Shown piece by piece: positions 10,022-60,000 of a stretch of 60,000 nt of DNA. Origin of the DNA: Schmidtea polychroa (taxonomy: Eukaryota); NCBI GenBank assembly GCA_044892525.1, contig CM097885.1, positions 15,936,001 through 15,996,000 of the forward strand. The letters run 5' to 3'. The notes beneath the pieces are model-generated. The model had not been told where the DNA came from and made no database searches. It worked only from the letters and a program-made list of their open reading frames with translations. Position 1 is the stretch's first letter. Each line of letters opens with the position of its first letter. The translations under genes were made by a program, and so were the position numbers.

Positions 10022-11618
10022 ATGTTGGCAAGCGTATGGGAAATGATGAAGAGGAAAGAATTTGAATTTGATAATGAAATCAGCAGTGAATTGATATGCA
10101 GAATTTGCAAATGTTTAATGATAAAAGCTTGCCATGCTCCTTGCGTTTGTGGCTTTTGTTCTGATTGCATTGAAAATTATTTGGATGGAAAAGATAAATT
10201 CTGTCCAGGAGCAGCAAAACATTGTAGAAAGAAAATGATCAATTTCAATAAAGATGTTTCTGAAGATCATGCAGCTAATTTAAGGATTTCAGAAGTGGTA
10301 GTGAGATTCCCAATGCAAAATTGTCAATTTAAAGATGAATTAGAGGTGATGGAGAGCCACATGAGAACATGCAACAAGCAACCAATAAAATGTTTATTCA
10401 ATAGAATCGGATGCGAAATGAATGAGGTGGTAAAGGATGAAATGAAAGTCCATCTCATTGAGAACACTGAAGGCCATAGCAAATTATTGATTGATCAGAT
10501 CAGTAATTTGTGCAATGAGATGCAAGCAATGAGAGACGAGAATGTGACATTGTGTAATGAAATTATCAATATCAATGTAAAATTGTATTTGCAATTAATT
10601 TTATTGATATTTAGGATTGGAGGTGAAATTGTGCAATATTGAAAAGAAAGAGACTGAAAACAGAGAAGATATAGAAGAATTGAATGAGGAAATGGTGGCA
10701 TTGAAGAATGAGAACCGCTCATTGAGAATGGATATGGAGACAAATATTGGATCAATCAATCAGGTTTGATTATTGATTTGATTTGATATTGATATGTTAT
10801 TGATGGAAAGCAGGTCAGACAGCAAATTGAAGTGATTGAATCAAAATGTCAGCAGCAAATTGATGAGATGAAAGAGAAATGCGAGCAGCGGCTGCAACAG
10901 GTGAATGAAAAGGTGATTTATTGATTTATTGAAATGTTTGAATTTGAGATTCAGTTGCAGCTTGAAATGGCGAAATGTGCCAATGAAATTCGGCGGAATG
11001 AAACAAAATGTCAACAGCAAATTGATGAGATGAAAGAGAAATACGAGCAGCGGTTGCAACAGGCGAATGAAAAGGTGATTTATTGATTTATTGACATATT
11101 TGAATTTGAGATTCAGTTGCAGCTTGAAATGGCGAAATGTACCTATGAAATTCGGCAGATTGAAACAAAATTAGCAAATGAAAAATATGTAAATTACGGA
11201 TTTTTTGAATGGGAAATCGATAAATTTTCACAACAAAAGAGAAGTAAAAATATTTACAACAAAAGCGTTTTTTTCGGGACTAATCGGTTACAAAATTTGC
11301 TTGTGGGTGCTGATTGATGGTAATTGGGGTATTGGGGCTGGTTTCTGTTTGGTGCGTGGGGCAAATGATGAGCAATTGGATTGGCCGTTCAATCAATCCG
11401 TGACAATCGATGTGATCGATCCAGCAAATGGCAACATTTATATGAGGAAGTCAATGAAATATTCAGATAGCCCTCTTGATGCAGCTGGATGGAGGAAACC
11501 TTCACACGACAGAAATAATTCAATTGGTATTTATTATTATCCTGATGCCAGCTCAATCTATAAATTAGCAGCCAAAAGTAATAAATTGCTGCTCAGGAGC
11601 AGAATTGAAAAATTATGA
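10022..11618 (+). pseudogene. TRAF-like copy 2, frameshifted in the MATH domain
   Basis: Paralog of copy 1 with one extra coiled-coil exon; frameshift near 11258-11275; zinc-finger Cys lost (CPMQ to FPMQ); weak acceptor ttggag. Confidence 0.8.
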
Positions 11619-16378: not shown

Positions 16379-17138
16379 TAATTAATATAATATGTTTGAT
16401 GGGCCTGCATTGAATGTATAAAGTTGCCAGCAATGCTTATATTTTGAACGACGATAATTTAAACAAAAAGAAAATCCCATAAATTTAAAGATATATTTAT
16501 GACATGTTAAAAGCTTTAGTTAATTTAAATATAAAATTATTTCAATCAATTGTTACAGTCGGAATTCGGTTCAACAATATCAAAAAGAATAAAGTGCAGA
16601 CGGTACAAACGCGTGTCACTATCTTATCATTTTACGCCTTTATTGACACTCCTGGCTAAGGAATTTATATTTGGGAAAAAGATGAAAGTATGAAACTATT
16701 TCTATTTTGGGACAGAATTTAGGAACCAAGTTGGTTTTAATATAATAATTATCCAGCAAAGGTGAAATAAAAGAACCTAGACAATTATAGGCAATGCGTG
16801 ACGTTAAACAAACAACAAATTAAAAATATTTACCATTTCAAAGACATTGGTTATTTCGAAATACAATTCATCATTTCTACTATCCTTTTCTTCGGTAATG
16901 GAGATCTCTTCAAACTGACCATCAAGGTCCAGCAATTCCTGAGGGGGTGCAGCATAATTCGGTACATCATCTGTCATAATAGAAAACGATTCAATTAATA
17001 AAAATATATTTACCTATTTATATAGCATAGTTGTAGTGGACTATTTCTGGCATTGTGACAAATTCAATGTTGAAATTCAATTCTTTGAGTTCCAATTTTA
17101 ATAGATCCTGGGGGATAAATAAAAAAAACAAAATATCA

Positions 17139-18443
<1,305 letters not shown>

Positions 18444-18461
18444 TGGTAGCAGAGCGTGGTT
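18444..18461 (+). other. Primer binding site, complementary to the initiator tRNA-Met 3' end
   Basis: TGGTAGCAGAGCGTGGTT; animal tRNAiMet ends ...CTCTGCTACCA. Confidence 0.8.
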
Positions 18462-18631
18462 CCGGCTAGCCAGCCGGAACAAGGTAATAGATGATTATAT
18501 AATGTATTTTTTGTATTTACGTGATTATTTTGTGAATTATTTTATGATTTTATATTTTATATTTATTTTATATTTTTATTGTTGAAACATTTCCCCTAGG
18601 GCCTGCCCTCCCTAACCCCATTAGAGGTGGA

Positions 18632-21600
18632 TTGGCGCGGGTATTTGTCAAAATAATAACAGGGAAGACAATTACTCTCGAAGTTGAATCTAGTGACACG
18701 ATAGAAAATGTTAATGCGAAAATACAAGATAAAGAGGGTAGTCCACCTGACCAGCAACGATTAATTTGCGCGGGAAAACCATTAGAAGATGAGCGAACAT
18801 TATCTGATTATAATATTCAAAAGGAGTCTACTTTGCGTTTAGTTTTGCGATTGAGGGGTGGAATGCAAATATTCGTGAAGACACTGACAGGAAAAACAAT
18901 AACTTTGGAAGTAGAATCAAGTGATACTATTGAGAATGTAAAGGCTAAAATTCAAGAAAAAGAAGGGATACCCCCAGGGCGACAAAGACTTAATTTTGCC
19001 GGGAAAGTATTAAAAGATGGCCTAACGTTGTTAGATTATAACGTTAGGAAAGAAGCCACGGTACATCTGGTTTTGGGGCTGGCAGGGGGAAGTCCAGTAT
19101 CAGATGCGGAGTTCGAGGCGGGGTACAAGAGACGAACCGGGTGGAAGATTTCGTTAGGGCGTCTACGTAACCGGGCCTTAGGAGATGGATCGGACCCTGG
19201 GGAAGATCAAAGGAGAATGGAGGCTTACGAAGATATGTATGAGGAAGTCATAAACGAATTGGAGGACCTGAGGAATAATGCTCGGGAGTTAGGGCGGGAG
19301 AAAGAAGAAAAGGAAATTGAGGCAGATCTGAAACGGTTAGAAGCGGATTTCAGCAGAATCGGCGATCTGGTCCTCACGCAGAAGGAAGAGAGTTTTAGAG
19401 TAGAGTCGCGGAAGGGCACAGAAAAATCATTTAGGAGCGAAGAGCCCAATGAGAAACAGAAGTGCATAATGGGTTTGAAACCCTTGCAGCTGCCGATCTT
19501 TAATGGAAAGGTAATAGAATATCCTGGATGGAGGGCAATTGTGAGAGCCTGCATCGAGGACACGGATGAGCCGAGTGAAAGAAAGTACTTGTACCTGAGA
19601 CAGTACTTGGAAGGGAAGCCGCTGCAATTAATTGCCTATATTGGATATGGCTCGCAGGCTTTCGAGGCGGCGATAAAATTACTTGATGAAAGGTATGGGG
19701 GACCAGAAAGATCCTATTCCATGATGCTGGATGCGGTGCAGAGGTTCTTCCCAGTGAGGCTCAACGTCTTGGAGGACCTAGAGCGGTTTGAAGAGCTGCT
19801 AGGAAACCTCATCCTGAATTTCAAGGATCAGAAGAGGGAAGGCGAGTTAAACAACGGGATGTTGTATCACCAACTGCTGAAGAAGCTGCCAGAGACCATG
19901 CTGATTCAGTGGTCACGCCATTGTGATTCGGGGAGAGAGGGAAATGTGCAAACGCTAGCCGAGTGGATCAAAACGGAAGCTAATAGGCATCGGCAAGCAA
20001 TGAGCATTCTGTTTGGAGAAGGGCGGGCAAAAGGTAGAACTGTCGCCCCAACAACTAACTTCGGAAATGCGAATAGGGGCACGAAGTTAACGGATAGTAG
20101 GCGCAAGATAGAGGTTAGCAGTGCTCGAAAAAAGGAACCAATTTGTGTGAAATGTGGTTCAGAACATTATTTAAATCAATGCTCAGAGTTCCTAAAGCTG
20201 ACTGTTAAGGAACGAAATGAGTTTGTGACCAAGAAGCGGCTTTGTTACAATTGTCTTACAACAGCTCACATGGTTAGAGAATGCGAAAAACCGAGCTTTT
20301 GTAAGGACAGAGATTGTACTCGAAAGCATCACAATTTGCTCCATGGCTCAGAGAACAAAGTTGATGGAGATCAAGAGCCGAGCAATGAGAACACATCAAT
20401 GATGACGGTTCAAGATACACAGAGGAAGAAGATGTATGTTCCTTTACGAACGATTACAGCAAAGTTGATTAATAAAGGAAAGGCGGTCAACATCAACGCA
20501 TTGCTAGACGACGCTAGCAATGTTAGCTATATTAGCGATTGGGCGGCGCAAGAACTGGGGTTGGGAGGACAGTGGCAAAGCACTCCAGTTGGCGTGATTG
20601 GTGGACAATCACAAATGTTGGAAACGAAGCCCGTGACGCTATTATTGGCAAGCAACAATAACAATTTAAAGGTAAATTTGAACGTCCTGGTGGTAAAAAA
20701 GGTCACTGGAGACCTGGGAATGTGTAACTGGAGGAAGTTATCGGCGAAATGGAAGCATCTGCGATATATAAACTTCCCGGTTATGAATACAAGGACGCAG
20801 ATTGATGTATTGATTGGTTCTGATTACCCATATCTACATCGATCTATTTGCGAAGTAACAGGAGCAAAGCATGAACCAATTGCAAGGTTGACGCCCCTCG
20901 GATGGACATGTCTTGGTAGGATTGCAAGAAATCAAGCTCCAAGATGTTCGCATTTGGCTCAGAGTTATTTTGCGGTAACGGAAATGTTAAACGACGGAGA
21001 AATGATTATTCATGATGTAGATAATTCTGAAGAAATGGATTATATTAAAGAATGGGATAAAAACGATGAAACACATGAAAACAAAAAGGCTAGCGAAGAT
21101 GGAGATAGGGAAAGCAATGAATGTGAGAATTTACAATCTAGCGATATTATAAATCAAGATGGAATAGAGCAAAATCGAGTCAATGAGAACGAGAATAATT
21201 ATTCTGAATTTGTAAAAAGTAATACTGAACTATTAGGCAAAGCTTTTGATAAAGGAGACCAAGTTACAGCAGATGAGTTAGAAAATATTGTCAAAAGTCA
21301 CAATCAAGAAGAAAATTTTGAAAGTAAATATGATGAAACTGAAGTAGATGTGTCAGACAAGAATGAAAATTATAATAGTCATGTAGGCACAGAGGTTGTC
21401 GACATTAATGTTATCGAAAGACCGAATTCTTTGGTAGAAGATAATTTTCAAAACATGGAAGACGTAGTTAATGTTCAAACGGATTCTGCTTCTTCAGAAA
21501 ATCATTTAGAAACTGATCGAATTATGCCAGATTCTGAGAGCAATGACAGTGATCTTAGAGTCGATATTGGTAAAGATCATACATCCGACACAGCTAAAGA

Positions 21601-21925
21601 TTCTGAACAAAATACATTCACTCAACCAACGTCTGCTTTAGATGATATCATTGAAGACTATTCACCTGGTTCCCCTTTATTAAATGAGATGCAACAGGGA
21701 AAAGTGGGGACTATTGAATTGGTGAAACATGCAGGAAGGATAATGGAGATATTGCAGCGAAACAGAATGAAAAGTGGCAGGGGCTTGGTCGAGTATGGCG
21801 ATGGTGGGAGGAGAATCCACCATGATGTATCCAGAAAAGTGCGTGGTGCGGTGGCCTTTACCATAGCAAGATGGGTGTGTGAGGGGTATTGGAGAGAGGC
21901 AAAAGGAAAGGTTCCCCTGAAGTAA
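18632..21925 (+). CDS. Ubiquitin-ubiquitin-BEL/Pao Gag-aspartic protease-acidic tail polyprotein
   Basis: Two ubiquitin units ending LRLRGG and [14 protein letters not shown]...[11 protein letters not shown]ag core; [27 protein letters not shown] knuckles; ALLDDAS and DVLIGSDY protease motifs; uninterrupted 1097 codons; first ATG at 18863. Confidence 0.9.
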
Positions 21926-21953
21926 TTGGGTGGTTGATCCGCTAGAAGGGATC

Positions 21954-21967
21954 AAGGAGGGGGGAAA
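21954..21967 (+). other. Polypurine tract
   Basis: AAGGAGGGGGGAAA abutting the 3' LTR TG. Confidence 0.9.
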
Positions 21968-23078
<1,111 letters not shown>

Positions 23079-26745: not shown

Positions 26746-27326
26746 CAGGAATCTTTATTGATGATCACAAATAATTTTCACTTTACTCTGACAATCAATT
26801 CAACACTCCGCTCAGTGACTATACAATACTTATTGAAACACTCAGTGAAGAATAACACTCGAGTAAAACACCGGATTAAAAGATCCTTAACTACTGATTG
26901 GTTTATCGCCTGGGGCTTTGAGTTGGTTGTTTTCTTTGAGATTCTTTGAATTTTTTTTATCATTATCTTTTCTTGTTTGTTTATTTATGATTCTTTCAGT
27001 TTGTTTCACGATTTTTTCTTCTTTCTGTTTTGTTTCTTGACATTTTGATTTTTGTGTCGCTTGTTTTTCTTACCAAAATTTAACCGTTAATTTTAAGGGC
27101 TAAAGGTCAGTGTCAATGTATACCTTGATGTAAATAAATAAATATTACAATATTTGTTTACTATTATCAAGATTTAACTACAAATGGATTAGCATGAATA
27201 ATAATTTTTCAACTTCCTATAATTTCGTAAACATTATATTTATTAAAAAACTTGACCTATTGTGGATAACTCATGGTGCATGTGATGGTGGATGTATAAT
27301 AAATATTAATAATAAATATTAATGAT

Positions 27327-28198
27327 TGTTTCAGCCGATTTTGGATGATTTTTTTTGTATCGCGTCTGTGTGCGCACACAGACGCGAGTAATAGGTAATT
27401 TATATTTTATATGTTATAAGTTATGTTTCTGTAGTAATAGATTTAAATCGATCTTTAATTTGTGGAATTTGGTTTTGATGGTTTGTTAATGGAAGAGCAG
27501 GAATCGTTTGTTTGAACTGGTAAATTGTGTAGAAATTTTGGATTTTTGTTTTTTAGTTGAAACATGGAAGAAAATGAAGGCCTGAAATGTCGTCTTCCAA
27601 TGAGCAATATAGCGAAGATTATTTTCTCACCTGAAGGGAGATCATTCCAAGTCGAATATGCATTTAAGGCAATTGCATTAGATGGATTGCTTTCCGTTGG
27701 TATTCGAGGCAATAATGGTGGTGTAGTAGCTACACAAAGAAAAGTTCCAGATAAAATGATTGAGAAGAGTTCAGCTACAAGATTGTTTAATATTACTGAA
27801 AGTACTGAATGGGTTATGACTGATATGATCCCTGATTGTCGATCTCAAACATGTCGTGCACAAATGGAAGCAGATCGATTTAAATATAAAAATGGATATG
27901 AAATGCCTTGTGACATAACATGTCGTTGTATCGCGGATATTAATCAGCTCTACACCCAATCGGCTGAGATGCGACCATTAGGTTTATCAATGATAGCATT
28001 ATCTTATGATATTGAAATGGATAAACCGTTATTATTCAAAACTGACTCCAGTGGCTTTGTAACTGGACATCGAGCTGTTGCAGTTGGTGGGAAGCAATTG
28101 GAGGCTAAAAGTTATTTGGAAAAGAAACTACGTAAAAATAGAGCGTGTGAAACTATCAAATACATAAAAATCTTTTTGACGTGTTTTAGACGAAAACA
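27327..28198 (+). mobile_element. Solo LTR related to the BEL/Pao LTRs, carrying a proteasome alpha cargo
   Basis: TGTTTC...GAAAACA termini; AATGAT duplicated on both sides; shared TCGCGTCTGTGTGCGC/GCACACAGACGCGA motif and similar leader; 872 bp versus 878 bp. Confidence 0.78.
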
Positions 28199-28256
28199 AA
28201 TGATAATAATAACAAATAATAATATTAATAATAATGATAATAATAACAAAAAATAA
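27564..28256 (+). CDS. Intronless, truncated 20S proteasome alpha subunit (alpha1/PSMA6-like) with a foreign N-terminus
   Basis: IFSPEGRSFQVEYAFKAI, TQRKVPDK, FKYKNGYEMP, IADINQLYTQSAEMRPLG, SYLEKK; C-terminal part missing. Confidence 0.85.
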   Translation: MEENEGLKCRLPMSNIAKIIFSPEGRSFQVEYAFKAIALDGLLSVGIRGNNGGVVATQRKVPDKMIEKSSATRLFNITESTEWVMTDMIPDCRSQTCRAQMEADRFKYKNGYEMPCDITCRCIADINQLYTQSAEMRPLGLSMIALSYDIEMDKPLLFKTDSSGFVTGHRAVAVGGKQLEAKSYLEKKLRKNRACETIKYIKIFLTCFRRKQMIIITNNNINNNDNNNKK

Positions 28257-28739
28257 ATAATAATAATAAGAATAATAATAATAATATAAAACGAAGATTC
28301 CTTGCCAGTAGCATCGATTAAAAATAAAATAATTAATAAATAAAGTTCTAAGATTTCAGTGCAAATTTCATATTTAATAAAAAAATAAATGAGAATTTTC
28401 GACTATGAAATAATCTTATTTAATTGATTGAAAAATAAATAATAAAATTCCACTACTGGTCAATGTAGGCAAGGTGATTGCTCGCCATATATTCTCAGGA
28501 AATGGCCATAGTTTGCCTTTTGATGGACATGAAGGACATTTTGTATCCGGCTATTGCTGGAGGTAATATTTTATATGGATGACACGTGTCAGCTGCCTGA
28601 GAGCCACAGGAATATCCTAGAAGGCCACTATTAGCATAGAAAGGAACTTATTTACTCCTTCACTCACCAATGAGAATGAATAATAATTTAACATTATGCC
28701 ATTTTCGCATCTAATGCTTTACTGATCCATCTCAGCCAT

Positions 28740-29696: not shown

Positions 29697-31556
29697 ATGT
29701 TTGCAATCGTATGGGAAATGATGAAGAGGAATAAATTTGAATTTGATAATGAAATCAGCATTGAATTGATATGCAGAATTTGCAAGTGTTTAATGATAAA
29801 AGCTTGCAATGCTCCTTGCGGTTGTCGCTTTTGTTCTGATTGCATTGAGCAATATTTGGATGGAAAAGATAAATTCTGTCCAGGAGCATCAAAACATTGT
29901 GGAAAGAAAATGATCAATTTCAAAAAAGATGTTTCTGAAGATCATGCAGCCAATTTAAGGATTTCAGAAGTGATAGTGAGATGCCCAATGCAAAATTGTC
30001 AATTCAAAGATGAATTAGAAGTGATGGAAAGCCACATGAGTACATGCACCAAGAACACTGATCAGATCAGTAATATATGCAATGAGATGCAAGCAATGAG
30101 AGATGAGAATGTGACATTGCGTAATGAAATTATCAATATCAATGTAAAATTTTATTTGTAATTAATTTTATTGATATTTGTGATTGTAGGTGAAACAGAG
30201 CAATATTGAAAGGAAAGAGGCGGAGAACAAAGGAGAAATAGAAGAATTGAATGAGGAAATGGTGGCATTGAAGAATGCGAACCGCTCATTGAGAATGGAT
30301 ATGGAGACAAATATTGGATCAATCAGTCAAGTTTGATTATTGATTTGATTTACTATTGATTTGTTATTGACGCAAAGCAGGTCAGACAGCAAATTGAGGC
30401 GATTGAATCAAAATGTCAACAGCAAATTGATGAGATGAGAGAGAAATGCGAACAGCGGCTGCAACAAGGGGATGAAAAGGTGATTTATTGATTTATTGAA
30501 ATATTTGATTTTGAGATTCAGTTGCAGCTTGAAATGGCGAAATGCGCCAATGATATACGGCAGAATGAATCAAAATATCAACATCAAATTGATGAGTTGA
30601 AAGAGAAATGCGAGCAACGTTTGCAACAGGTCAGACTGCAAATTGAGGCGATTGAATCGCCTCAAATGAGAGAAATAATTCAATTGGCATTTTTAATTAT
30701 TATCTTGATGCTCATGGCAGCTCAAATTCGGCAGAATGAAACAAAATGTCAACAGCAAATTGATGAGACGAAAGAGAAATACGAGCAGCAGTTGGAACAG
30801 GGGAATGAAAAGGTGATTTATTGATTTATTGAAATGTTTGAATTTGAGATTCAGTCGCAGCTTGAAATGGCGAAATATGTCAATGAAATTCGGCAGAATG
30901 AATCAAAATATCAACATCAAATTGATGAGATGAAAGAGAAATACGAGCAGCGGTTGCAACAGGGGAATGAAAAGGTGATTTATTGATTTATTGAAATGTT
31001 TGAATTTGAGATTCAGTCGCAGCTTGAAATGGCGAAAAGCGCCAATGAAATTCGGCAGATTGAAACAAAATTAGCAAATGAAAAATATATAAATTATGGA
31101 TTTTTTGAATGGCAAATCGATAAATTTTCACAAGAAAAGAGAAATGAAATTATTTACAGCGAGGCATTTTATTCCGGGCCAATCGGTTACAAAATGTGCT
31201 TGTGGTTGGGGACTAGTGGTGATTTGTTTGGGATTTTTAATTGGGTTAATGTTGGTTTCTGTTTGATGCGTGGGGCAAATGATGAGCAATTGGATTGGCC
31301 GTTCAATCAATCCGTGACAATCGATGTGATCGATCCAGAAAATGGCAACATTTATATGAGCAAGTTTATGAAATATTCAGATCGCCCTCTTGATGCCGGA
31401 TGGAGGAAACCGTCACAAGACAGAAATGATCCAATTGGCATTTATTATGAGTATTATGATGTCAGCTCAATCTATAAATTAGCAGCCAAAAGTGATAAAT
31501 TGCTGCTCAGGTGCAGAATTGAAAAATTCTTACAAATTAAAAAAACAAATCAATAA
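29697..31556 (+). CDS. TRAF-like copy 3 (second zinc finger deleted, expanded coiled-coil exons)
   Basis: Same exon structure as copy 1; first exon 36 codons shorter; exons start near 30190, 30381, 30522, 30855 and 31017; MATH open. Confidence 0.8.
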
Positions 31557-34770: not shown

Positions 34771-36438
34771 TGTAGCCATCCAAATATTAAAATATAAAAT
34801 GTTTTAATATTAGGATAGTTTGTTTAAATATTCAAACATTGTTATTAAAATATAATTTGAAATGTCAGCGTAACCATGAACGGTGCGATGGAAGCCTTCA
34901 ACCAATATCATTTTTCTCAAGGAAACTCAGCTCAACAGAACAAAAATATTCAACATTTGACAGAGAGCTGCTTGCAGTTTACCTGTCCGTTAAAAATTTT
35001 AAGCACTACCTGGAATCAAACGAATTCTGTCTAAAAACTGATCATAAGCCGCTCATTCACATGAGTTCGATGAAAAACCCTTCAAATCGTCAATGGCGAT
35101 GGATCAACTACATTTACCAGTTTAACTTCAACATTCATCACACAAGAGGTCAAGACAATCAAGTTGCTGACTTTCTATCGCGACAAAGGGAGACAGAACC
35201 TCAAGAAGCCATAGTTAATAATATCAAGCTAACAGAATTAATTATCCAACAAAAAGACGAATCCTTTATTAAATCACTGAAATCAACGACTTTGAAGTTA
35301 CAGGAAACTGAAAATGGCGTTCTTGTTGATGTCAACAACAACATCGTCAGGATAATTCTACCCGAAGTCTTTAGACGGCTAGAATTCAACCGTCTACATA
35401 ACAGGCGCCACCCTGGGGCAAATGCGACGATCAAAATGATTAAACAGAAATATGTTTGGCCAAAAATGAGAAGTCAGATACGTAAATGGTGTAAAGAATG
35501 CGAATCATGCCAAAAGAACAAGATAAATAGACATACTAAATCAAAACTAGGACAACTACCAGACAGAGGTAAATTTAAAATAATTCATATTGACATAGTA
35601 GGTCCATTGCCCTCAGTCAACAACAAAAGGTTTCTTTTGACAATCATTGACAGATTCTCCTCATGGCCGGAAGCTTTTGCAATAAATGAAATAAACAGCT
35701 CAAGCATAGTTAATATACTCGAAAAAGAATGGATTCCTCGATATGGAGCGCCAGAAATTGTCATTACTGACAATGGCAGACAATTTGTCTCATCAACTTT
35801 CAAGGAGCTGTGCTCAAAATATGCCATCGAACATCGACATACAACTGCATACCATCCTCAGTGTAATGGCAAAGTCGAAAGATGGCACAGAACATTAAAA
35901 GCAGCTCTTCGAACACATTCCGACAATGCCAATAGAAGTTGGGCTAACGACATACCGGCAGTTATGCTTGGCTTAAGAAACGTCACATCAGAAGAAACCG
36001 GTCTATCACCAATGCAAGCGGTTTTTGGAACCGATTCCAGAATGCCAGGTGACATCGTACTAAAAAAATTGAAGAAACGCAAATGCAACGAAAGGTCATA
36101 CTTTCCGAAAGAATTAAAAACATGCAGTCACGTATGGATGGTCAAAGAATCAAGGTCTTCCCTTCAACCAATATATGAAGGACGCTTCAAGGTCATTAGT
36201 CGCAGTGAAGATTTCAAAACATATCAAATTGAACAAAATTCAAAGATAGTCAGAGTCTCAGTTGACAGACTAAAAGCCGCATTTTCAAGTTAAGATACTC
36301 CATAATCTACGTTGGGGGTTTATGTAGCCATCCAAATATTAAAATATAAAATGTTTTAATATTAGGATAGTTTGTTTAAATATTCAAACATTGTTATTAA
36401 AATATAATTTGAAATGTCAGCGTGTTCTTCTCCCAACA
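34771..36438 (+). mobile_element. Internally deleted Gypsy element with 116-bp LTR
   Basis: LTR 36323-36438 (TGTAGCC...CCAACA); identical 101-bp partial 5' LTR 34771-34871; TSD ATAAG; G-tract before the 3' LTR. Confidence 0.9.
34872..36293 (+). CDS. Gypsy RNase H and integrase, open but N-terminally deleted
   Basis: YSTFDRELLA, TDHKPL, HPG...CESCQ, HIDIVGPLP, ITDNGRQF, GKVERWHRTLK, YEGRF. Confidence 0.9.
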   Translation, partial: NHERCDGSLQPISFFSRKLSSTEQKYSTFDRELLAVYLSVKNFKHYLESNEFCLKTDHKPLIHMSSMKNPSNRQWRWINYIYQFNFNIHHTRGQDNQVADFLSRQRETEPQEAIVNNIKLTELIIQQKDESFIKSLKSTTLKLQETENGVLVDVNNNIVRIILPEVFRRLEFNRLHNRRHPGANATIKMIKQKYVWPKMRSQIRKWCKECESCQKNKINRHTKSKLGQLPDRGKFKIIHIDIVGPLPSVNNKRFLLTIIDRFSSWPEAFAINEINSSSIVNILEKEWIPRYGAPEIVITDNGRQFVSSTFKELCSKYAIEHRHTTAYHPQCNGKVERWHRTLKAALRTHSDNANRSWANDIPAVMLGLRNVTSEETGLSPMQAVFGTDSRMPGDIVLKKLKKRKCNERSYFPKELKTCSHVWMVKESRSSLQPIYEGRFKVISRSEDFKTYQIEQNSKIVRVSVDRLKAAFSS

Positions 36439-39150: not shown

Positions 39151-40024
39151 TAGCTAACCTGCCAAGTGTCCACTGCTTGATAGTCAGAAAGCTCCTGGCG
39201 TTTAGCGATAAATTCCAATACAAAATTGCAGGTGAACTTAGAATCGCCCAGTCACTGGATAGCCATTTCCATAACCTAGAGAAGGAAATCCAAAATCAAA
39301 TCGAATCGCAACCCCTCGACACCCATTACCTCCTCATTTGGCACCTCCTTTAACAACTCGATCACAGTATTTAATTCGAACTCTTCGGAGAATTTAGCGA
39401 GCCTTTTCAAGCACCATTTAGTCAGCTGATCCACTGATCCGATTTCTTGCTTATAATTAGACGCAACTGGCGCTTGATGTTATTGTTGCTGCTGTCTATG
39501 AACCGGATTGATCGATGGCTATTTCATATTACAATTCCATTCCCCATAAATATATAACCATTTTACTTCGTTTATTTTGTGGTTCTGTGGTTTAGAATTG
39601 CACTCGGCCGTTACCACCGCGGCTGGCACCACCACCTTATTATGTACAGGAACATCGCTGGGAATCATATCCCAGATCGATTTGCCAACTGGGATCTGTG
39701 CGGGTTTGGGTGTCTGCTTCAGCAATGACTCCTTGAATGACTACAAGAACAGAAATCATCATCTTCTTGTAATTTTATTCAATTCCAATTCATTACTGTC
39801 ACTTTATTCGTTTCTATTTGATTAACTTTCATTGCTTTTTCTATTTCTTTAGTTTTCTTGGCTTTCAATGCTTCTTCGGCTTGGATTTCTACAAGTGATT
39901 TGGCTGCAGGAGAAACATTTTGAGACAAAGTTTGTCCTGATTTCCAAGTGGAAGGAGTTTCAGTTTTATTTTGACTGGTCTTTAAATTATTCCATTATAA
40001 AGATTTGTATTATAATTACAGAAT

Positions 40025-40705
40025 AATTATTGGATTATTATTGAATTATTATTGAATAATTATTGGATTAATGAATTATTATTGGATTAATGAATTATTA
40101 TTGGATTAATGAATTATTATTGGATTAATGAATTATTATTGGATTAATGAATTAATATATGATTAATGAATAATTATTGGATTAATGAATTATTATTGGA
40201 TTATTGATTTATTATTGGATTAATGAATAATTATTGGATTAATGAATTATTATTGGATTAATGAATAATTATTGGATTAATGAATAATTATTGGATTAAT
40301 GAATTATTATTGGATTAATTAATAATTATTGGATTAATGAATAATTATTGGATTAATGAATTATTATTGGATTAATGAATTATTATTGGATTAATGAATT
40401 ATTATTGGATTAATGAATTATTATTGGATTAATGAATTATTATTGGATTAATGAATTAATATATGATTAATGGATAATAATTGGATTAATGAATTATTAT
40501 TGGATTAATGAATAATTATTGGATTAATGAATAATTATTGGATTAATGAATTATTATTGGATTAATTAATAATTATTGGATTAATGAATAATTATTGGAT
40601 TAATGAATTATTATTGGATTAATGAATAATTATTGGATTAATGAATTATTATTGGATTAATGAATAATTATTGGAATAATGAATTATTATTGCATTAATG
40701 AATTA
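40025..40705. repeat. 19-bp minisatellite GGATTAATGAA(T/A)ATTATT, roughly 35 copies
   Basis: Directly visible tandem array. Confidence 0.92.
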
Positions 40706-43700
40706 TTTGTGTTATTTTTAGATTATTTAATTATTAGTGTTATTATTGGATTATTGAGCTATTAATGGATTAAAGTAATTACTGTATAAAAAGTGCAAAT
40801 TTAAAATCAATACAGAGAGAAAAATCCTGATATTGCCCATAATTTATTGAAACACGTGGAATTCAACATGCATTTAAATTCCCGACCAATCACATGGAAT
40901 CACGCGAGAATAACAATAATTTTTGCCCAAAATTTAAATAATATGAAAAAAATAAAATCAATTACTTCATTTGATAATTCTAATTTTTTTAAAACTTCAT
41001 GTTGCTCTTTTGCTATTTTTTCTTTCAAAGTTTCTTCAGCCTGGATTTGCAGCAAAGATTTTGTTGCAATTACCGGAGGTTTAATCAAAGCTGGCATGTC
41101 ATTTTTTATAGATTTTTCCTTTTCAGTAAATAACTTAATAAATATAAATTCAATTGAAATTGGTTCCTAGTTGGTAAATAACAAGATTACTGGAATTTTG
41201 TTTGATTCAGACAAATTTGTTGATTTTGATTGCTTGTTTTTTCTATTACCTACTTCTACTATTTTCGGTTTTACTGTTCCATCAACTTTTACTTTTAATT
41301 GAGATTCCTTTAGAGTTGGTAATTGTTCTTTTATTGATTTATCGGAATCTTTCATAACAACAGAACTGTCAGACAATTTATTTTCTGTGCCCATTTGATT
41401 GGGTGATTTTTGAGCCTGAGGAGCAGCATTCCAAATTGACTTTACCTGTTCTACTTTGCAAGTTTCTTTTGGCGAAGTATTTCGTACAACCTATTGGAGA
41501 AAATGAAAATAATTGAAGAAAAACTATAACTTAATCAATATCTGCCAGTCTATTATAATCAATATTTTACGTATTTTAACTGTTTAATCAATATTTCAAT
41601 ATAACGATAATGCCGAGTAATGGATAAATATTGAAACATAAATTCCAACATAAATATCGATCTACACAATTCTAATATCAGATATTGTGCAGATCAGACT
41701 TGAATATATATATTTTGATCAGATTTGAAAGTAACTGTGATATAGGAAATAATATAAATCAATAATTACATTGGCTAAAATTTAGTTTTGATAAATATGA
41801 TAAATACTCGACAAAGATTACATTTAAATGGGATTGGTAACTGAAGTACGAGAAAGCAAATATAGAAATTTTAATTTACTGGTCATTAACACAACACCAA
41901 AAAAGATTGCCAAATTCAGATTAAAAATTATTGTGTTGAATAGCGAAAAATAGCGATTTAATTTTGATCAATAGACGTGATGAAAATAAATGAAATGTTA
42001 AAATAAAACAAAAGACAGACTTAAGATTAAATATAATTGTAATAGCACCTGGACACGGATTTATCTTCAAAATAAAAACGACAACAAGGCAAAAAGTATT
42101 TGTTCCAAAGAGAAAATAGTATCCAATTAAAAAATTATCCTTCCAATGCCTATTTTTGGTACAATTAATCTTTTTTGTGTTTTCAATTTCAATTATTTTA
42201 AAATTTCAATTATTTTCAATGAATTTTATTTAGCAATAAATGAAATTTTGATCTATAATCGTAATCAAAATAAATGAAATGTTAAAAAAATAAAAACAGA
42301 AAAGGATTTTATAGATAATATCAATAAAATAATATTTTTTAAAAAATTAAAGATAAATATGATAAATTGAAAAACCATAAGAAAATAATTGAAATGGACT
42401 CAAATTAATAAATTATCCTTCCAATGCCTATTTTTGGTACAATGAATCTTTTTTTGTATATAATAAATTATTGGGTAATTTATTAATAAAAAAATTGATT
42501 TATTTTAAATATAAATCAATTTTAATTATTTTAAAATTTCATTTATTTTCATTACAACGTCAGATCAAAAATTATTGTTGAATAGCAATAAATGAAATTT
42601 TGATCTATAATCGTAATCAAAATAAGTGAAATGTTAAAAAAATAAAAACAGAGAAAAGGTGAACAGAGTAAAGGATTTTATGGATAATAAGAACTTTTTT
42701 TTTTCAAATTTCACCACTAATTTATTTTCCATTATATTTATAAAAAGAAGAGCTTGAAGAATATGAATCAGTAAATTTATCAAAAACATCGATATATTTT
42801 CAGGCTTTTTAATAAATATTTTATATAGGGAATGGAATAATGGGGGCATTTCAATTGTAACAATCTATATCAACACCTGGTATTCTGAGATAATCATTGA
42901 TGTATATTGTTCCTCTCCTCTTACTTGATTGGTTTCAGTGATTACATAGAAGGGAATATGCATACTTTTTAGGATTTTAGTATATTTAGTTATTTCAACA
43001 ATCAAAAAGTTAATTAAATTCATTTTATGATATTGTTAGAAATTGTTATATAAGTAATAAAGTAAGGGCAAACTATGGAATATATAATATAAATCATTAA
43101 TTTTATTGTGTTAGTATAATTTCTTATTGGAGTCAGTATAAAATTCCTACCGTTGGTTGAATTTCCGGCTCATTGGATTTCTTTTCTTTTTTCATTTTAA
43201 TACTTTCTTCCGCCTGTATTTGGATAAATGATGTGGAAATTGCGGTTGGAGTGGTTTTCACTGGACCCCATATTGATGGTGAATCAGATTTTCGATTTTC
43301 CAATTCAATTCTTATTGGTCTAACCTGAACAAACGTAATTTCAATAATGAAATTGAGAAAATGAATTCTGGTTTTATGTAACACCTGTGATCGATTAATT
43401 AATAGTTCTGACCCTGGAAATAATAGTCACTTTTCAATGCAATCGATGTCCTATCTGACACTTAATTTTATAAATGATTTTTATTAAATCAATCATTATA
43501 AAAAAGTTATAAGAAAAAATAATATATTGTGATCAGTTATAACTCCTCAAGCTCATTTAATAATCATTTAAAATTTAAGCAGTTACTGTCTTAAATTTTA
43601 GGTTTAAAAATGCAATTGATACAAGTAAAATTCAATTTATGCCATCAATATTATCAAAATTTATGAAATTCCTACATTATCAGTTCAATAATTATTGATT

Positions 43701-56000: not shown

Positions 56001-56316
56001 GTAATTTTATATATGGTCAAAATTAACTTGTAAATTTTTTTTAAAATATTACTTTATTATAGGAAATCAACCGTATAGGAAATATACAAGATTATTACAA
56101 GAAAAATCTTCCCAACTCAAATTATTACACAAATGCACTCAGTCTGGGACACATTGAGGAGCCATTGAAAGCTTGGTCACACCGCGAGCCAATACTCATG
56201 CTCATTGCGAAAAATCCAGTCAAATCGCCTTTATTGCCCTCATAAACATTACACAAATGCACTCAGTCTGGGACACATTTCTCGCTATCCGTTCTGAGTA
56301 AGCATCCGTTTTGTAC

Positions 56317-57458
56317 AGGTCATAGTAAATTATTGATTGATGAGATCAGTAATATATGCAATGAGATGCAAGCAATGAGAGATGAGAATCTAAAATTGCG
56401 TAATGAAATTATCAATATCAATGTAAATTTGTATTTGTAATTAATTTTATTGACATTTGTGATTGTAGGTGAAACTGGGCAATATTGAAAGGAAAGAGGC
56501 GGAGAACAAAAGAGAAATAGAAGAATTGAATGAGGAAATGGTGACATTGAAGAATAAGAATCGCTCATTGAGAATGGAGATGGAGACAAATATTGGATCA
56601 AACAATCAAGTTTGATTATTGATTTGATTTGCTATTTATTTGTTATTGCTGCAAAGCAGGTCAGACAGCAAATTGAAGTGATTGAATCAAAATGTCAACA
56701 GCAAATTGATGAGATGAAAGAGAAATGCGAGCAGCGGCTGCAACAGGGGAATGAAAAGGTGATTTATTGATTTATTTAAATATTTGAATTTGAGATTCAG
56801 TTGCAGCTTGAAATGGCGAAATGCGCCAATGAAATTTGGCGGAATGAAACAAAATGTCAACAGCAAATTGATGAGATGAAAGAGAAATGCGAGCAGCGGC
56901 TGCAACAGGCGAATGAAAAGGTGATTTATTGATTTATTGAAATATTTGAATTTGAGATTCAGTTGCAGCTTGAAATCGCGAAATGCGCCAATGAAATTCG
57001 GCAGATTGAAACAAAATTAGCAAATGAAAAATATATAAATTACGGATTTTTTGAATGGGAAATCGATAAATTTTCACAACAAAAGAGAAATGAAAATATT
57101 TACAGCAAGGCATTTTATTCTGGACCAATCGGTTAGAAAATGTGCTTGAGGGTGCTGATTGCGGGTTATGGCTGGTTTCTGTTTGATGCGTGGGGCAAAT
57201 GATGAGCAATTGGATTGGCCGTTCAATCAATTATTGACAATCGATGTGATCGATCCAGCAAATGGCAGCATTTATCAGGGCAAGTCAATGAAATATTCAG
57301 ATTTGCCTCGTCATGCCGGATGGATGAAACCGTCAAATGACAGAAATAATCCAATTCGCATATATTATGGCCCTGGTGCCAACTCAATCTATCAATTAGC
57401 AGCCAAAAGTGATAAATTGCTGCTCAGGGGCAGAATTGAAAAATTCTTACAAATTTAA
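56317..57458 (+). pseudogene. TRAF-like copy 4, 5'-truncated, nonsense codon in MATH
   Basis: Starts mid exon 1, fused to an unrelated repeat; GGT TAG at 57131-57136 replaces GGT TAC; followed by a frameshift. Confidence 0.88.
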
Positions 57459-60000
57459 AAAAAACATTTCAATAAAAAATTGATTTATTTTCGGTTTTGA
57501 TTTGTTTTATTGTTTGCCTTATTATTATTGATTTACTGACTTACTATGAGATGCCATCAATCTAATATTGCTAAGGGAAGCAACTACGAGGGGAACATGG
57601 GGAAATTCGGCAGCACTGATCGAAAGATGAGTTATGAGAATGAATGATCGCATCATCATTAATTGCAAGCTAAGATGGCTGCATTCTATCCACTGATAGA
57701 TTAGATTGATTTGCATTTGTAAATATTCTATGTGGCGGAGCGCTCATAGCAAATTGTCAATATCAATATCAATTATATCAATCTCGAGTCCGATTTACTA
57801 ATAATATTATTGTTAATATAATAATAATAATACTATAGTTACTCTGTATTGCTTCGCACACCATTTGCATTTGTAATGAGATCCTTTTTAAGAACTAGTG
57901 ACATGATTTTATATTAAATAATGTAACATTTCATAAATTTATTCACTTTTTCATTCTTTAAATTTTCAAATACAATATTATTAAAACAAAAAAGATTTCA
58001 TGTAAATTATTATTTAAATTCACAAATTTGATAAATTTTATGAATGAAGTTTACTTATTAATAAAACAACGAAATTTATCTTGAAATCTTGAAATTATAA
58101 AAAATATAAGATAATAAAACCACCAGGTGGATCTAAACTTGAAAGGGTACAAGAAATTATTTTGGAACTTGAAAATCATTAGGTACATCAGAAGTTGAAG
58201 ATTATTAAAATCAAACTTACAAGTTTTGGCATCAGTGGCTTAACCAAGGACGGGGGTTAGTGGTGTTAAACCTCCCATTGGATTTTACATGTTCAAATAT
58301 TTGTCGACGTTAAGTGCCTAAAGGATCATCCACCTACATTAGAAATAAAGACACTTTTTTATTTTATTTTATTGTAAATATTAACTGTGACATATGTCTT
58401 TACTCTATAGTCTACACTCTCAGTACATTGTGATTATTTATTTTGTTAAATTTTATTTTGGCTATTTTTTTCTGATGTTCAATAAGTTATCTCCGTACTT
58501 AATGGAGTCAGCGAATAACGTCATTATCAATACAGACATCTTTGTCATGAAGAGCTTCGCGCCTTCGAAACCCTTATACGTCCACGCTTGAAATACTTGA
58601 CCATAATAATAATAAATATTTCTCAACTCCAACCCCCTTCCCTTTCATAAATTCCTGGCTACGTTGGAATATTAATAGTGTTTCGGTTGGCAAATAACTC
58701 AGAATCTGGCGAGTGTTATTTTAATTGTTAGAGTCGCTGATAGATTTCTCATTAGCTCATACTTAAACGCTTATATGAATATTTTACATTTTACCATCAA
58801 TATACCCATGCCAACCGCCTTGTTTGGAATGTACGCAGTCATTGAAAATCATTAAGCAAGTGATCTCAATTTCAAAAGATGGGTTACGAGTTGTGAGAAC
58901 AATTTATGTTTATCTTTGCGAATGTAGGCCTTTTCCCGCCGTTACTCACACTTTACCCTATTTCCTTCATAACTCCGCATAACTATTGATTTTACCGCTA
59001 AATGCCCATCACAAGCGACAATGGTGCTGAAATTTAGTTGGCGGCTCCTTTATTGTCAGATGCCTGTTGTTGTTGTTATTTTCATAATTAAAAATTGAAA
59101 TATTAAATTTTAAAAACAATAAATAAATAGCAAGAATTGCCAGGAAAGAGGAAAACAATAACGATCGCAGCATTAAATTTATTATAAACTTTATGAATTT
59201 TATGAACATTGGGAAGATTTTATGATCTCAATTTATTTTATTTATTTGTGAAATTTAATAAACGCTATAAGGATAAGTTATTTGTTGTGGTAAATATTTA
59301 TTTATGGTAAATATTTATTCATTTTCATAGTTAATTACAAACATAAAATTTGCACTCGCCACAAGCAATTTGAACAAACAAACCCTCCAGCAGGACATAA
59401 GTATCAAAGAAGATGTAGCGCCCTATTTCATATTTCCCTATCCTCATTATGTTCACTTGACCAATCTATTTGCCGTTACTTGATACCTCAAATTTCTGAA
59501 TTTGGATTTGTACTTAAATAAATAAAGATTTGAAGTTGAAAAGGCAACATTAAACTATCAAAGGTTTCCTATCAGCTGCTTATTTCCATTTATGACGAAT
59601 TTAGCTTTAAAATTTATTTAGATTCAAAATGAAATGCTGTAAATTGCATTTGGATTAAAAAACAACTTTATTTCAAATTAGGCAAGCGACAGAATCAAAT
59701 GAATAAATAAGTAAAAGGAAATATTTATTAAGCATCAAATTCTCAATGTTTCCTATCGGGTAGGCTTGTTCGAGCAGATTCCAGCTTCCGGATCCTTTTT
59801 CACATGTACTTTATGCCATGAGGCTTTGCTGACTTCTTGTTTTCTATAGAGGAAGTCAATGTTGTTGATTGGTTAGCCTCGTGATGTCAGAGGAAATAGC
59901 GGGAAACAGTTCCATCTCTGAATAGGTGGAACGCCAATATTCACATGAATGCCTGCTCTCATCACGGATAGCCATTGGGCTTGTTTTTGGATGGTAATCT

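Follow-up and report, generated by a model that had tools for sequence, protein, structure and literature searches.

LTR-mediated retroposition by template switching, as set out in the available text of Tan et al. 2016 (PMC5131818), yields partial mRNA copies without poly(A), chimeras with several parents and further rounds of copying; according to the same text one mosquito case involves a BEL element, and in the Drosophila set every case shows replacement of some portion of the internal ORFs. In the maize element Bs1, as described in the accessible portions of PMC13317346 and PMC5131818, several host mRNA fragments are fused in one ORF of an LTR element and the switch points are fixed. Foreign sequence located within the LTR is described for Cassandra TRIM and BARE-2, where it is 5S rRNA-like or comes from another retrotransposon (available sections of PMC4717578 and PMC13317346), and BEL/Pao families called Flow are known from Schmidtea mediterranea (accessible part of PMC3118150). 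In the gene capture by LTR elements that is known from the available text of PMC5131818 and PMC13317346, the mRNA cargo lies internally, with fixed switch points.

The locus described here, located in a window of 60,000 nucleotides of Schmidtea polychroa DNA (contig CM097885.1; all coordinates below are those of this window), is a decayed remnant of a family carrying its cargo in the LTR, and it makes no working proteasome subunit. We regard it as probable that a BEL/Pao-type family holds host mRNA fragments within its LTR, acquired by template switching over repeated rounds, and that the present copy is a solo-LTR remnant of it. Like the cases of Tan et al. 2016, the locus holds a partial mRNA copy without poly(A) and without a duplication of its own, and with secondary retroposition. 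Unlike them, the cargo of this solo LTR lies inside the LTR and not between two LTRs; moreover, it survives in a solo LTR, and sister lineages trim it again with the frame kept. The locus shares with Bs1 the presence of host mRNA fragments in one ORF within an LTR element, but the planarian sisters show several break points, in contrast to the fixed ones given for Bs1 in the accessible accounts. Cassandra and BARE-2 also have foreign sequence in the LTR, which, as far as their available descriptions go, is not protein-coding host mRNA in an open frame. With the Flow families, the flatworm host is common and a DUF1759 Gag is found in the related DUSP12 element presented below, whereas LTR cargo is not mentioned for Flow in the accessible part of PMC3118150. 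The available text of PMC11410931 mentions neither Pao nor retrocopies, and literature searches, whose coverage left out most subscription papers and Repbase, found no published report of a planarian cargo-in-LTR family. LTR-mediated retroposition is already known; cargo within the LTR, trimmed anew in sister copies, is a new variation.

The element itself was delimited as follows.

27327..28198, + strand: solo LTR of 872 bp, assigned to a BEL/Pao-type family, with TGTTTC...GAAAACA ends
27321..27326, + strand: left target-site duplication, AATGAT
28199..28204, + strand: right target-site duplication, AATGAT, which opens a degenerate (AAT)n tract (28199-28286)
27360..27387, + strand: 28-nt perfect palindrome, a GC-rich hairpin and signature of the LTR family (z -3.5 on 27327-27400)
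28141..28198, + strand: LTR 3' module, with a AGAGCGTG box at 28140

The original prediction had described a solo LTR at 27327..28256; a solo LTR with TG..CA termini and the AATGAT target-site duplication was found, but it ends at 28198 and not at 28256. The chance of an identical 6-mer pair between two 100-base flanks is 1.1%. Both edges are further located by sister copies: one with a different flank begins aligning exactly at 27327, and the alignment of another ends at 28197. The loop region of the hairpin, 24-27 nt long in sisters, is missing from the solo LTR copy. An Rfam search gave a single match, below threshold (E 0.48).

A related element lies upstream in the same window.

17566..18589, + strand: related 5' LTR with a DUSP12-type fragment, its 3' twin starting at 21968
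18590..21925, + strand: internal region of the DUSP12 element, an open frame with two ubiquitin units followed by a DUF1759 Gag

The hairpin is common to the solo LTR and to both DUSP12 LTRs (17566 and 21968), with a score reached by none of 500 shuffles, and the AGAGCGTG box recurs at 18451 in the DUSP12 LTR, these being the only 2 matches in the window when both strands were searched. The rest of the 3' module resembles the DUSP12 LTR no better than shuffles do (238 of 500 as good), and a leader block conserved with the DUSP12 LTR was rejected on the same grounds (240 of 500). Since likeness beyond the hairpin stays at this shuffle level, the solo LTR and the DUSP12 LTRs represent distinct subfamilies. 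DUF1759 was matched in the DUSP12 element with an E value of 2e-8, together with a weak protease match, and no RT or integrase family match was found in its internal region. DUF1759 is a domain which we take to be a marker of BEL/Pao Gag. Kinship with BEL/Pao is thus indicated by a hairpin shared with an LTR pair that flanks a DUF1759 Gag, the rest of the LTR not being significantly alike, and on these sequence features the solo LTR is provisionally assigned to a BEL/Pao-type family, through the Gag of the related element and with no RT match.

The two DUSP12 LTRs are identical at 861 of 865 aligned bases, and as this pair differs at only 4 bases compared with the decay of the solo copy, the DUSP12 insertion is the younger of the two. 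Its cargo lies inside both LTRs, and from the LTR end a frame is open via an IRGG motif and the two ubiquitins into Gag. Positions 17566-22832 as a whole have the appearance of a young non-autonomous element with a DUSP12 cargo, two ubiquitins and Gag. Its 3' LTR is cut short by a (TTA)n run, with about 160 bp missing, and has a second strong hairpin at 21976-22004, before the family hairpin, of which 16 bases are lacking in the 5' LTR. Within the window, both LTR insertions of the family are surrounded by DNA of AAT/TTA microsatellite type (17120-17565, 22830-23020 and 28199-28286), which hints at a target preference.

The coding content of the solo LTR comprises three features.

27564..28256, + strand: chimeric ORF of 230 aa, open through the LTR end, its stop coming from the flanking microsatellite
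27564..27619, + strand: foreign N-terminal module of 56 nt, MEENEGLKCRLPMSNIAKI
27620..28140, + strand: captured piece of host proteasome alpha1 (PSMA6-type) mRNA, 521 nt, about 96% like host contigs and cut within the coding region at both ends

As originally predicted, the ORF begins MEENEGLKCRLPMSNIAKII and joins proteasome alpha1 at IFSPEGR; the Pfam domain PF10584 was matched from residue 20 of the ORF, and PF00227 was matched as well. Its nearest relatives are flatworm alpha type-6 subunits, at no more than 64% identity, so that domains and nearest relatives both place it in the PSMA6 family. Alignment and substitution counts showed in the ORF neither full PSMA6 length, nor gate residues, nor purifying selection: when aligned with flatworm alpha type-6 it is without the gate residues and without about 55 C-terminal residues, and its final 19 codons and stop sit outside the LTR, in the flanking (AAT)n DNA.

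Four of the 23 listed public runs (X1, X3, X7 and X10), all of them consisting of assembled contigs, were compared with positions 27200-28330. X7 and X10, which come from two studies, are taken as RNA by guess only, none of the listed runs being recorded as RNA, and X7, with no cover over the start module or the hairpin, was not used as evidence there. Deep host alpha1 contigs in X10 and X7 match 27620-28140 gap-free and extend past both ends. By hand translation the host contig reads GSSGFDRYMT, a normal gate N-terminus, 5' of IFSP and KEFSLDEAIE 3' of LRKN, and both extensions agree with the alignment of flatworm alpha type-6. Since the host contigs match 27620-28140 only, the 19 N-terminal codons must be of foreign origin and both ends of the cargo are truncated, the junction lying exactly at 27619/27620, where these contigs stop matching. 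The possibility that the host gene has the start of the ORF natively was thereby checked, and the normal gate N-terminus found in host alpha1 in both X10 and X7 upholds the prediction of a foreign start. The alpha1 cargo is flanked by neither poly(A) nor a duplication of its own. Loss of host introns from the cargo may be inferred, its match to the contigs guessed to be RNA being gap-free; no host genomic exon boundary was found among the 21 listed of 257 loose ends.

Upstream of the ORF, an intron had been proposed within the leader.

27395..27556, + strand: T-rich leader (25% GC), bounded by GT...AG and containing four upstream ATGs, the proposed intron

Letters resembling splice sites do exist at 27395 and 27556, but none of the 12 joints in the 4 runs connects 27394 to 27557. 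One X10 contig covers 27499-27542, inside the proposed intron, and an X10 loose end at 27396 runs on as unspliced leader; contigs of this kind can show the presence and not the absence of a splice product. Splicing would, by argument, remove four of the five upstream ATGs. A short upstream ORF, MEEQESFV (27489-27515), has a start like that of the main ORF (MEE).

The foreign start module most likely derives from a second host mRNA. It has no match elsewhere in the window, and it is multi-copy in DNA, with 5 variant contigs in X1 and 9 in X3 at position 27581. In X10 the depth at 27643 (1995.1) is that of the host contig (1985.3) plus one sister (9.77), while the depth at 27581 is 632. As the former is fully explained by these two contigs, the module contigs at 27581 do not continue into alpha1, and the start is therefore a module of its own. 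Arithmetic on the depth table further indicates that X10 cover of the module sets in just upstream of the ATG and stops no more than a few bases from the junction. In round terms, a donor gene other than an NF-YB-type one comes close to an even chance, an NF-YB-type histone-fold gene is plausible without being probable, and birth of the module within the element is unlikely.

That the module derives from another host mRNA, possibly read in another frame, with its histone-fold look due to chance, is a reading we hold tentatively. A second frame does start at ATG 27587, reads MSSSNEQYSED and is open past the junction, but an ATG followed by ten open codons is common by chance. The start context of this second frame, GAAATGT, is identical to that of the ORF in the DUSP12 LTR. 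The summed X1 DNA depth of 4433 over 27580-27617, compared with 574 at 27581, is as expected if many copies start matching near ATG 27587, although summed depth is inflated by overlapping contigs. No donor was found for the module in either frame, a text search of the literature included.

Somewhat doubtful is the reading in which the first capture was of an NF-YB/NC2-type histone-fold mRNA, of which only the first 19 codons survived later overwriting by alpha1. The original prediction had seen a histone-fold-like start, and the resemblance stands, by eye and against planarian NF-YB primers: the S. mediterranea NF-YB primers read LPICNVSKIM (S2 Table in the accessible material of PMC4909293), and the module scores 30 (BLOSUM62) against this helix over 9 residues, with a P of about 1.7e-5 per motif. 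It is the sole 9-mer to reach this score among the 66,472 six-frame 9-mers of the window, but 0.17-1.7 such matches are expected given 10,000-100,000 recognisable motifs. The variant listed in the module, at 27581, is silent in the ORF frame, and the occurrence of the module in contigs without alpha1, with X10 cover ending within a few bases of the junction, is also in line with this order of events. Against it stand the N-termini that follow from the S. mediterranea primers for NF-YB and NF-YB2 (MDDNMN and MDHQVQQGD, same accessible part of PMC4909293); they are unlike the MEENEG of the module, although species may differ.

A histone-fold match was also looked for without success in profile, structure and protein databases. 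Neither Pfam nor NCBIfam gave a histone-fold profile match to this piece of 19-20 aa, a length at which HMMER filters hide weak matches, and none was found in PDB or Atlas. Word-index searches of proteins of 126-403 aa and of 30-125 aa, those above 403 aa lying outside the search, returned none either. In a representative-library search with a 30-aa query, 29 matches were obtained, of which the four checked were all WD40 repeats and no histone fold was seen. Such blanks are weak since the databases seem to lack the proteins of this organism, the best alpha1 match being 64%. A metagenome scan for a 20-mer of the module gave one chance match in an unrelated retrotransposon-like contig, and scans of viral contigs for the LTR hairpin and for an NF-YB-like motif gave 0 matches each.

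The cargo differs from host contigs at 20 positions, 19 of which are listed, 14 amino-acid-changing and 5 silent. The resulting pN/pS of 0.76 is compatible with neutrality (P=0.58) and differs from a ratio of 0.2 (P=0.006); the cargo substitutions thus fit neutral decay. At 17 of the 19 sites the host letter makes up at least 85% of the X1 depth, so the changes are mostly private to the solo LTR copy and amount to a decay of about 3%. At 27643 neither X1 nor X3 has the window letter, which may represent an allele or else an error. That the locus is a functional, domesticated form of alpha1 with a novel N-terminus is very improbable, and largely refuted, given this drift: the ORF is still open over 230 codons, but it has lost the gate residues and about 55 C-terminal residues, and in X10 no junction contig covers 27643. 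At 27960-28131, long contigs in X1 (1,400 nt) and X3 (4,137 nt) carry an alpha1-like piece of greater age, which shows 28 differences and 4 gaps and may stem from a previous capture or be an old copy.

Sister copies of the cargo were abundant. Summed X1 depth is about 60 at the solo LTR locus, 2,800 at 27643, 54,000-74,000 at 27808-27874 and 1,300 at 28151; being inflated by overlapping contigs, it is not a copy number and was used qualitatively only. This profile suggests many sister copies that keep mostly the middle of the cargo, and the many variant sister contigs found across it are the mark of secondary retroposition. Among the 21 listed of 257 loose ends, other sequence is joined to the alpha1 piece at 27611, 27683, 27726 and 27736. 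In the 27611 form, under a different leader, an ATG falls in frame and gives ME-AKI-IFSP; three X3 contigs whose leader differs begin matching there, nine bases before the junction. A common 12-nt module is found, 45 nt apart, in the 27683 and 27726 forms, and at the 27736 junction (consensus agreement 0.71) the alpha1 frame is open but the nearest ATG is out of frame. The TRAF genes of the window were rejected as the source of the module beside 27683 and 27726 (1 match, at chance level), and no sister leader end or other loose end could be placed in the window, matches being at chance level or none. In a repeat-rich region where a microsatellite interrupts the adjacent 3' LTR, one might suspect an artefact of assembly, or a processed pseudogene made by a LINE and inserted in the LTR, but either is hardly credible given the X1 single-locus contigs nearly identical to the window, the X3 contigs that match from 27611, and a cargo that ends inside the coding region with neither poly(A) nor duplication around it.

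The idea of two successive captures in the same slot is thereby retained at the level of the family, where repeated capture into one LTR slot is indicated by the joins at 27611, 27683, 27726 and 27736 and by the module without alpha1, but the histone-fold donor it proposed was not found. As to the order of capture, an earlier cargo that was overwritten, a double jump in one round and a later replacement of the alpha1 start may fit equally.

Although its protein content decays, the cargo appears to keep its frame. Six of the 12 joints fall in the cargo and alter its net length by 48, 48, 48, 108, 63 and 3 nt, all six multiples of 3; the letters between are not known for three of them, and the three 48s are probably one event. 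Counted as four independent joint events that keep the frame, this has a chance of about 1 in 80. The 12 listed of 20 indels are all outside the ORF, and the eleven common sister letters absent from the host comprise 7 amino-acid-changing, 4 silent and 0 stops. The frame-keeping joints, the position of the indels and the absence of stops in sister letters suggest that selection on the family maintains an open frame and not the protein content.

Taken together with the probable capture by template switching into the LTR of a BEL/Pao-type family, these results can be placed in the following scheme. Reverse transcriptase copying the LTR end of the element RNA would switch at 28140 onto a co-packaged alpha1 mRNA, copy 521 nt of it and leave at 27620. 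The captured piece would then be duplicated into both LTRs, of which LTR-LTR recombination would later leave a solo copy, while repeated rounds would replace the cargo ends in sister lineages. Selection on the family would keep the frame open, probably as full elements read on into ubiquitin-Gag, the function of the cargo protein not being preserved, and the ubiquitin units would let the junk leader be cut off from Gag. The DUSP12 copy does not show such read-through: there the frame of the cargo meets a stop shortly before the end of the LTR and does not join that of ubiquitin-Gag. A more far-reaching proposal, which we consider improbable, is that the LTR is a standing slot for sampling mRNAs, refilled at each round and constrained only in that its frame, whose product ubiquitin separates from Gag, must stay open, and that selection favours fragments of essential genes in it (proteasome alpha1, perhaps NF-YB), as silencing small RNAs would also hit genes on which the host depends.

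Because it sits in the LTR, the cargo doubles with every insertion, persists in solo LTRs and spreads many partial copies of an essential gene genome-wide. The scattered copies can mislead planarian gene annotation, read mapping and RNAi design. The nested break points constitute a natural record of template switching and make it possible to test if selection acts on the frame alone.

Other features of the window were also observed. Four dispersed TRAF-like gene copies (RING, zinc finger, MATH) lie at 1290-2721, 10022-11600, 29697-31556 and 56300-57500 and are about 87-95% alike in their best stretches, and positions 35061-36293 and 39904-40735 hold an integrase ORF (rve, H2C2), which belongs to a different LTR element, and a tandem array with a 19-bp unit.
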